Made by a program: the position numbers and the translations under genes. Shown here piece by piece: positions 9,788 through 10,391 of a stretch of 14,262 bases of DNA. Numbering within the stretch: position 1 is the first letter of the stretch; each line of letters starts with the position of its first letter. The stretch is from a virus (taxonomy: Duplodnaviria > Heunggongvirae > Uroviricota > Caudoviricetes): positions 1 to 14,262 of IMG/VR virus record IMGVR_UViG_2695420747_000011, one strand, 5' to 3'. Under the pieces are notes generated by a model. The model saw only the letters and a list, made by a program, of their open reading frames with translations, did no database searches and was not told the DNA's origin.

Positions 9788-9840
9788 TTTCTGGTGACGT
9801 TTGGCGGTATCAGTTTTACTCCGTGACTGCTCTGCCGCCC
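9788..9840 (+). ncRNA. dicF: DicF small RNA (Hfq-dependent sRNA of dicB operons; inhibits ftsZ translation)
   Basis: tttctggtgacgtttggcggtatcagttttactccgtgactgctctgccgccc followed by TTTTT matches the DicF sequence as I remember it, including the GGCGG...CCGCC terminal hairpin and U-tail. It sits about 170 nt upstream of dicB, as in Qin. Confidence 0.8.
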
Positions 9841-10014
9841 TTTTTAAAGTGAATTTTGTGATGTGGTGAATGCGGCTGAGCGCACGCGGAACAGTTAAAA
9901 CCAAAAACAGTGTTATGGGTGGATTCTCTGTATCCGGCGTTAATTGTTAACTGGTTAACGTCACCTGGAGGCACCAGGCACCGCATCACAAAATTCATTG
10001 TTGAGGACGCGATA

Positions 10015-10203
10015 ATGGAAACGTTATTACCAAACGTTAATACGTCTGAAGGTTGTTTTGAAATTGGTGTCACTATCAGTAACCCTGTATTTACTGAAGA
10101 TGCCATTAACAAGAGAAAACACGAACGGGAGCTATTAAATAAAATATGCATTCTTTCAATGCTGGCCCGTTTACGTCCGATACAAAAAGGATGCTGGCAA
10201 TGA
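10015..10203 (+). CDS. dicB: DicB cell-division inhibitor (MinC-dependent)
   Basis: 62 aa, METLLPNVNTSEGCFEIGVTISNPVFTEDAINKRKHERELLNKICILSMLARLRPIQKGCWQ, near-identical to my recollection of K-12 DicB. GAGGA lies 7 nt upstream of ATG 10015. The longer track ORF from 9910 is rejected. Confidence 0.85.
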   Translation: METLLPNVNTSEGCFEIGVTISNPVFTEDAINKRKHERELLNKICILSMLARLRPIQKGCWQ

Positions 10204-10391
10204 ATACAGCATTTGCACTTGTTCTGACAGTTTTTCTTGTTTCCGGAGAGCCAGTTGATATTGCAGTCAGTGTTCACAGGACAATGCAGGAGTGTGTGAC
10301 TGCAGCAACCGAACAGAAAATTCCCGGTAACTGTTACCCGGTCGATAAAGTTATTCACCAGGATAATAACGAAATCCCGGCAGGTCTTTAA
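10200..10391 (+). CDS. ydfD: YdfD-like small membrane lysis protein (63 aa)
   Basis: ATG 10200 overlaps the dicB stop as ATGA. MNTAFALVLTVFLVSGEPVD... has an N-terminal hydrophobic helix and the length expected for Qin YdfD. Confidence 0.75.
   Translation: MNTAFALVLTVFLVSGEPVDIAVSVHRTMQECVTAATEQKIPGNCYPVDKVIHQDNNEIPAGL

Follow-up and report, generated by a model that had tools for sequence, protein, structure and literature searches.

The dicF-dicB-ydfD module

The stretch of DNA analyzed here (hereafter the window) comprises 14,262 nucleotides of the Caudoviricetes record IMGVR_UViG_2695420747_000011 of IMG/VR, positions 1 to 14,262, and carries on its plus strand the small RNA (sRNA) gene dicF followed by the protein genes dicB and ydfD. 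The three genes lie at 9788-10391, a match to the dicBF locus of Escherichia coli K-12 that goes far beyond chance. Taking the surrounding genes into account, we consider it very probable that a lambdoid prophage inserted next to ompW carries here, intact, the dicF-dicB-ydfD part of its early-left operon (PL-type, "dicBF"). The module itself consists of the following features:

9788-9840, plus strand: dicF, sRNA (Rfam RF00039, K-12 alignment and fold)
9841-10014, plus strand: dicF-dicB intergenic region and 5' untranslated region of dicB
10015-10203 including the stop codon, plus strand: dicB, division inhibitor of 62 amino acids (Pfam PF05358, K-12 alignment)
10200-10391 including the stop codon, plus strand: ydfD, DUF1482 lysis protein of 63 amino acids (Pfam PF07358, K-12 alignment)
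10429-10442, plus strand: weak terminator-like hairpin 3' of ydfD (consensus scan only)

The Rfam family RF00039 matches the plus strand at 9789-9840 along the whole model (positions 1-52 of 52) with 76.7 bits (E 8e-16), against a gathering score of 48 bits, and alignment to MG1655 places the K-12-equivalent RNA at 9788-9840 with all 53 positions identical to K-12 DicF. In the predicted fold, 15 unpaired nucleotides at the 5' end, which form the seed region, precede a terminator hairpin (9803-9839) and a U tract (9841-9845). DicB matches PF05358 over positions 1-62 of 62 (127.4 bits, E 1.7e-37; cut-off 27 bits), shares 55 of its 62 residues (89%) with the K-12 protein and follows a GAGGA Shine-Dalgarno sequence; the protein is named dicB in the matching RefSeq genomes (WP_000449192.1). 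YdfD matches PF07358 (DUF1482) with 88 bits (E 3.7e-25; cut-off 25 bits) and is identical to K-12 YdfD at 59 of 63 residues (94%). The start codon of ydfD overlaps the TGA of dicB as ATGA, an arrangement in the window sequence which suggests that translation of the two genes may be coupled.

The initial annotation had described a complete module of DicF, DicB and YdfD homologs in canonical order and spacing, and the comparison with K-12 bears this out. The distances from dicF to dicB (174 nt) and from ydfD to the next open reading frame (ORF; 92 nt) are the same as in K-12, and the start at 9788 and the end at 10391 proved exact. Over the 604 bp of the module nucleotide identity to K-12 amounts to 97.0%, composed of 100% for dicF, 99.4% for the dicF-dicB spacer, 93.7% for dicB and 97.4% for ydfD, the non-coding parts being better conserved than dicB. 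RefSeq labels identical DNA with dicB and a DUF1482 gene, and dicF is left without annotation in the matching genomes. The spacer also gave a full-length match to the Rfam family STnc100 (RF02076) at 9838-10047 on the plus strand, which stays below threshold (38.7 bits, E 1.4e-6; gathering score 47 bits); a partial STnc100-like match is present in phage P1 upstream of tciA.

The predicted operon promoter and the neighboring repressor

The initial annotation further placed the module downstream of a repressor-controlled promoter and attributed its repression to an unusual repressor encoded nearby. The features that bear on this proposal are:

7509-7724, minus strand: cro-like gene, the counterpart of dicC, divergent from the repressor gene (Pfam P22_Cro, E 2.8e-16; 39% identical to K-12 DicC by tblastn)
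7754-7815: OR-like region with two GTAAC-N4-GTTAC palindromes, GTAACAATAGTTAC (7754-7767) and GTAACATTGGTTAC (7802-7815)
7774-8490, plus strand: CI/LexA-type repressor gene as annotated by RefSeq (Pfam HTH_3 and Peptidase_S24)
8496-8520, plus strand: intrinsic terminator of the repressor transcript (AACCCGC-loop-GCGGGTT, then a T run; read from the sequence)
8553-8581, plus strand: predicted PL/dicBp-like promoter, TTGACT-17-TACCTT, with a third palindrome (8565-8578) in its spacer and -10 region

In the 14 kb of the window there are exactly three copies of the palindrome GTAAC-N4-GTTAC, where about 0.2 are expected by chance, and none of 200 shuffles yielded as many. Two copies lie in the divergent region between the cI-like and cro-like genes, and the third lies in the PL-like promoter that follows the repressor terminator. 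This promoter was spotted by eye and by analogy with dicBp of K-12 (TTGACC-17-TAATCT), which has the same geometry and carries the DicA operator in its spacer. When the window is compared with a prophage of strain 55989, which has DicA-type immunity, homology resumes only at 8725, between the promoter and operator on one side and ydfA on the other; promoter and operator thus travel with the immunity region, as expected. From the three palindromes and the dicBp-like geometry we infer a repressor-controlled promoter upstream of the module, which is plausible and well supported by the sequence, and the presence of the same operator at cI/cro and at the PL-like promoter makes it plausible that the neighboring repressor acts on both.

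The repressor is indeed unusual. Aligned to lambda CI, it keeps the Ala-Gly cleavage site (QAGYW) and the lysine (TLKKV) required for self-cleavage by S24 proteins, but the serine nucleophile is replaced by alanine (EGDAMT in place of EGNSMT). Since this allele recurs among homologs, namely in a cluster of 499 members at 98% identity, in an E. coli protein at 89% and in a Salmonella protein at 68%, it is not an error; the serine is kept in an 87%-identical relative and in all more distant homologs. The LexA variant S119A and the lambda CI variant S149A do not self-cleave, and by this precedent the repressor should not respond to RecA, which makes RecA-driven self-cleavage unlikely. Its identity to DicA (57%) is confined to the helix-turn-helix region. 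In K-12, the antirepressor Rem relieves DicA repression (PMC10448788); a tblastn search of the window found no rem, ydfB or ydfC. With the nucleophile changed to alanine and no Rem in the window, derepression here probably follows neither the classical RecA route nor that of K-12. The commonness of a serine-less CI-type allele raises the question of how such prophages, and with them the toxic dicBF genes, get induced.

Even homologs of about 45% identity share the N-terminus annotated for the repressor (...SNIGYMK). Since translating the second operator, GTAACATTGGTTAC, gives the NIGYMK part of it, the gene probably begins at the ATG at 7816 instead.

Expression and function of the operon

The plus-strand genes follow one another in the order repressor, ydfA, a truncated ORF, a non-coding leader, dicF, dicB, ydfD, an exonuclease gene, xis and int, and the minus strand holds the cro-like gene, a YdaT-like gene and replication genes. 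Lambda-type early-left (PL) operons are arranged in this way, and the same has been published for dicBF of K-12 (PMC10448788). Apart from the features already listed, it includes:

8763-8915, plus strand: ydfA (DUF1391), first gene of the operon (Pfam DUF1391, E 8e-29; 90% nucleotide identity to K-12 ydfA)
8915-9265, plus strand: ORF of 116 amino acids in the place of ydfB/ydfC, a truncated phrog_2151 (matches 1-101 of 212), annotated as a pseudogene in RefSeq
9254-9448, minus strand: ORF of 64 amino acids, convergent inside the operon (phrog_4987, WP_001295058.1)
10484-12958, plus strand: exonuclease of 824 amino acids, corresponding to the K-12 pseudogene ydfE but intact (Pfam Rv2179c-like 3'-5' exonuclease, E 2e-66; phrog_2082)
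13249-14262, plus strand: integrase gene, frameshifted by a 43-nt deletion after 14199

In K-12, the polycistronic transcript yields DicF when it terminates at the hairpin of the sRNA and RNase E cuts at the 5' end of DicF; RNase III gives rise to a 190-nt species and, from read-through RNA, to a 72-nt species as well (PMC10448788, PMC9438474). The terminated ydfABC-dicF transcript predominates, and the longest transcript ends 3' of ydfD (PMC10448788), with which the hairpin at 10429-10442 of the window is consistent. The sRNA pairs with and represses the ftsZ, manX, xylR and pykA mRNAs (PMC10448788, PMC5069750), DicB brings MinC to the septum and prevents phage entry that depends on ManYZ (PMC10448788, PMC6832061), and YdfD inhibits IspG and lyses the cells (PMC8835842).

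Transferred to the window, these observations suggest the following course of events. Transcription would start at the PL-like promoter (about 8553-8581) unless the CI-like repressor blocks it via the GTAAC-N4-GTTAC operator, and the transcript would pass ydfA, the truncated ORF and a long structured leader before it reaches dicF. As in K-12, DicF would be freed by termination at its own hairpin and an RNase E cut at its 5' end, and read-through of this terminator would yield the transcripts that encode DicB and YdfD. The three products are expected to act on the host as they do in K-12, given that their sequences are identical or nearly so: with the RNA identical, DicF would pair with and repress ftsZ mRNA, and with the proteins 89-94% identical, the best inference is a MinC-dependent division block by DicB and an IspG-directed lysis by YdfD.

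The PL operon of lambda, with kil, follows the same logic, as it places a division inhibitor between the repressor gene and exo/xis/int under silencing by the repressor. Kil, however, has no sequence in common with DicB, the lambda operon has no sRNA at this place, and no N/nut system is evident in the window.

Several points weigh against this reading. The predicted -10 element (TACCTT) is weak, and a consensus promoter scan of 7400-10600 reported no plus-strand promoter, the PL-like site included. DicB differs from the K-12 protein at 7 of 62 residues, 4 of them within the last 8, so that the activity of this allele is assumed by transfer from K-12. The minus-strand ORF at 9254-9448 lies within the operon and could interfere with its expression. 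Finally, in the closest RefSeq relative, the prophage of E. coli AF39, 104 bp are deleted from ydfD (window positions 10262-10365; locus L002 22146-22268, annotated as a pseudogene), and ydfD is therefore dispensable and can decay.

A conserved leader RNA upstream of dicF

The block that the window shares with K-12 begins at 9507, 281 nt 5' of dicF, and it contains two structured elements:

9577-9661, plus strand: hairpin of about 25 bp, candidate RNase III substrate (minimum free energy fold of 9500-9850, z = -3.1)
9654-9779, plus strand: structured leader RNA of about 125 nt, directly 5' of DicF (covariance model R1, 145.7 bits; single copy in the window)

Judged by its length, the 190-nt precursor of DicF known from the literature would begin near 9651. 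The leader is composed of a closing helix (GUUGUGG/CUGCAAC), a hairpin H1 (CCGCG/CGCGG), a hairpin H2, whose sequence varies and whose loop is rich in pyrimidines, and a hairpin H3 (GGGUUGUCA/UGACAACCC) with the invariant loop CAGGUUGACCAU; a pseudoknot between GUAUGG and CCAUAC (GCAUGG and CCAUGC in P1) is probable. In a first covariation test with a pattern-restricted set of sequences (A5) the signal was weak, with two-sided changes at 2 pairs, and it became clear only once other genera were added. In the resulting model-guided alignment (A6) of 22 distinct sequences, which is fitted to the model and therefore somewhat favors the structure, 93.8% of the cells are paired and 9 of 25 pairs have changed on both sides, a level that none of 500 shuffles reached; slid controls gave 0-2 pairs with two-sided changes.

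The leader occurs without canonical DicF in phage cdtI, in Stx2c phages and in Ayreon, 2H10, Salmonella phage F1055 and P1/P7, and prophages of Citrobacter, Serratia symbiotica, Trabulsiella, Erwinia tracheiphila and Izhakiella carry it as well. A scan of 9200-10500 against Rfam 15 (E<5) returned DicF, the sub-threshold STnc100 match and two noise matches, and no family for the leader; no description of it was found in the literature on DicF with antitermination or on HK639. The leader may be new. A protein-coding role was rejected, as H2 contains a 1-nt indel relative to K-12 and its length varies by non-multiples of three.

Every copy of the leader that we inspected has an intrinsic terminator hairpin within tens of bases downstream. 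At the position that corresponds to 9780-9845 of the window, this hairpin varies strongly between copies and exists in at least 10 alleles, of which canonical DicF is the commonest; some alleles combine the 5' seed of DicF with a different hairpin, others keep the hairpin and have a different 5' part. The "dicF-like region" annotated in P1 (misc_feature 68791-68892 of NC_005856), which sits just 3' of the C1-controlled early promoter Pban, is homologous to H3 of the leader and then runs into a terminator. It lacks the DicF seed and its terminator hairpin is different, so that the P1 region resembles the leader and not DicF. In Serratia, Trabulsiella, Erwinia and Izhakiella, the terminator loop holds a GGAGG Shine-Dalgarno sequence and a start codon (ATGTTCTACCG...), and the reading frame crosses the 3' half of the terminator; from its sequence, this arrangement looks like a translation-coupled attenuator.

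What the leader does may be to serve as a processing scaffold or to control termination and read-through. We speculate, with considerable reserve, that it is an undescribed and widespread phage cis-RNA, that an exchangeable "sRNA-terminator cassette" exists of which DicF is one allele, and that the leader sets processing or read-through and hence the dose of DicB and YdfD. A leader in front of interchangeable terminator or sRNA hairpins may explain both the origin of DicF-like sRNAs and the read-through into the toxic genes.

The more specific alternative to the operon reading given above is that the leader at 9654-9779 governs read-through of the DicF terminator, be it as an antiterminator of the type of the HK022 put sites, as an attenuator or as a processing platform, and thereby gates dicB and ydfD. 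We regard this as unlikely, even though the leader has covariation support, is found in the early operons of unrelated phages (directly 3' of the C1-controlled Pban in P1 among them) and stands close to an intrinsic terminator in each examined copy. Like put, it is a structured RNA that is transcribed early in a phage early operon and upstream of intrinsic terminators. The HK022 put sites, however, are about 70 nt long, form two stems and exist in two copies, whereas the leader measures about 125 nt, has three hairpins plus a probable pseudoknot, exists in one copy and lies 1.1 kb from the promoter. Homology to put was rejected, since neither BLAST-short nor the covariance model found a match in putL or putR of HK022 and the window holds a single copy of the leader. 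Moreover, the predominance of the terminated ydfABC-dicF transcript in K-12 (PMC10448788) weighs against a strong constitutive antitermination, and the leader could simply be a processing scaffold for RNase III and RNase E. The preferred reading remains that of a PL-type operon in which DicF arises and is read through as in K-12.

Prophage setting and relation to Qin

The window is a lambdoid prophage inserted at ompW. Its best match, the genome of E. coli AF39 (NZ_OZ547136), is near-identical across 99% of the window and two indels apart from it; there the element adjoins ompW and also has Q, lysis and terminase genes. The AF39 prophage has the deletion in ydfD described above. In the window, a 43-nt deletion in int relative to AF39 and 55989 causes a frameshift by which the C-terminal 59 residues are lost, and the window ends at the new stop; int of the AF39 prophage is intact.

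The initial annotation took the module as the mark of a Qin-type prophage. This is true in so far as the element carries the dicBF operon plus hokD and ydfU, but in other respects it does not match Qin. At the nucleotide level, the only parts homologous to K-12 Qin are ydfU (82%), hokD (98%), ydfA (90%) and the stretch that extends from the leader to ydfE (96%), located at 328-1554, 1611-1874, 8725-8906 and 9507-11250. The insertion site of Qin, by ynfP and rspB, is not shared, as near-identical prophages abut ompW, yciC and tonB. The immunity region has no nucleotide homology to the DicA/DicC region and encodes a repressor with an S24 domain; the window lacks rem, ydfB and ydfC, and the replication genes and the ydfB/ydfC slot differ as well.

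The dicBF operon of K-12 Qin (ydfABC-dicF-dicB-ydfDE, under DicA/DicC) nevertheless resembles that of the window in having ydfA first and the exonuclease gene (ydfE) downstream, in the operator within the spacer of a PL-like promoter and in the same 281-nt leader, which is 97% identical. It differs in the repressor, DicA being a protein of 135 amino acids and that of the window a helix-turn-helix and S24 protein of 238, and in the operator sequence. In K-12, ydfE is a pseudogene split by IS2, whereas the exonuclease gene of the window is intact; homology between the two extends to the IS2 insertion, and xis and int follow downstream in the window. The closest genome of the window element, in contrast to Qin, has late, lysis and terminase genes.

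Other lambdoid elements with the leader-dicF-dicB-ydfD-exonuclease block are the PPompW prophages of Shiga-toxin-producing E. coli and induced phages such as PhiR42_1, vB_EcoS-813R8 and mEp460. PPompW occupies the same ompW site as the window element, and its module is just 83.8% identical; the modules of the other phages are 95-97% identical and come with short repressors of the DicA/C2 type, as in mEp460. Among 5426 complete E. coli genomes, 4648 carry the module, the number of copies per genome having a median of 2 and reaching up to 9, and it is present in isolated or induced phages (such as PhiR42_1, vB_EcoS-813R8, mEp460 and PPompW phages); its presence in several different prophages of one genome has been published (PMC5069750). 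Since it occurs in many different lambdoid prophages, it is not diagnostic of Qin.

One might ask whether the module is a silent passenger, intact only through the recent arrival of the prophage and without a role in the host. Signs of decay point in this direction: int is frameshifted, the upstream ORF at 8915-9265 is truncated and the near-identical prophage of AF39 has already lost part of ydfD. Yet the module is kept in most of the E. coli genomes, often in several copies, and in inducible phages; dicF is invariant relative to K-12 while the flanking genes diverge; and phage exclusion and stationary-phase DicF have been described in K-12 (PMC10448788, PMC6832061). We think it quite improbable that the module is merely carried along.

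Least probable is that the dicF-dicB spacer holds an internal promoter from which dicB and ydfD are expressed independently of the prophage repressor: the conservation of these 174 nt above that of dicB, their sub-threshold likeness to STnc100 and one older study that put a promoter upstream of dicB (as noted in PMC10448788) speak for it, but primer extension and Northern blots found no internal operon promoter in K-12 (PMC10448788), and the consensus scan reported no plus-strand promoter-like site in 9841-10014.

The window thus offers a further copy of a known and very common module. Publications already describe the dicBF locus with its three products and its distribution across different prophages, and as first stated the finding holds nothing new. 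For annotation, it is of use that dicF goes unannotated in the matching RefSeq genomes and that the module marks the early-left operon of this prophage. Only the leader RNA and the repressor that lacks the serine might reward further work.

Two minor observations concern the remaining parts of the prophage. The minus-strand ORF at 9254-9448 overlaps the end of the plus-strand ORF at 8915-9265, and together the two stand in for ydfB/ydfC of K-12. At 1705-2030 on the minus strand lies a hok/sok type I toxin-antitoxin locus (Rfam sok, 117 bits at 1855-2030; hokD annotated at 1705-1860), a region 98% identical to the hokD region of K-12 Qin.

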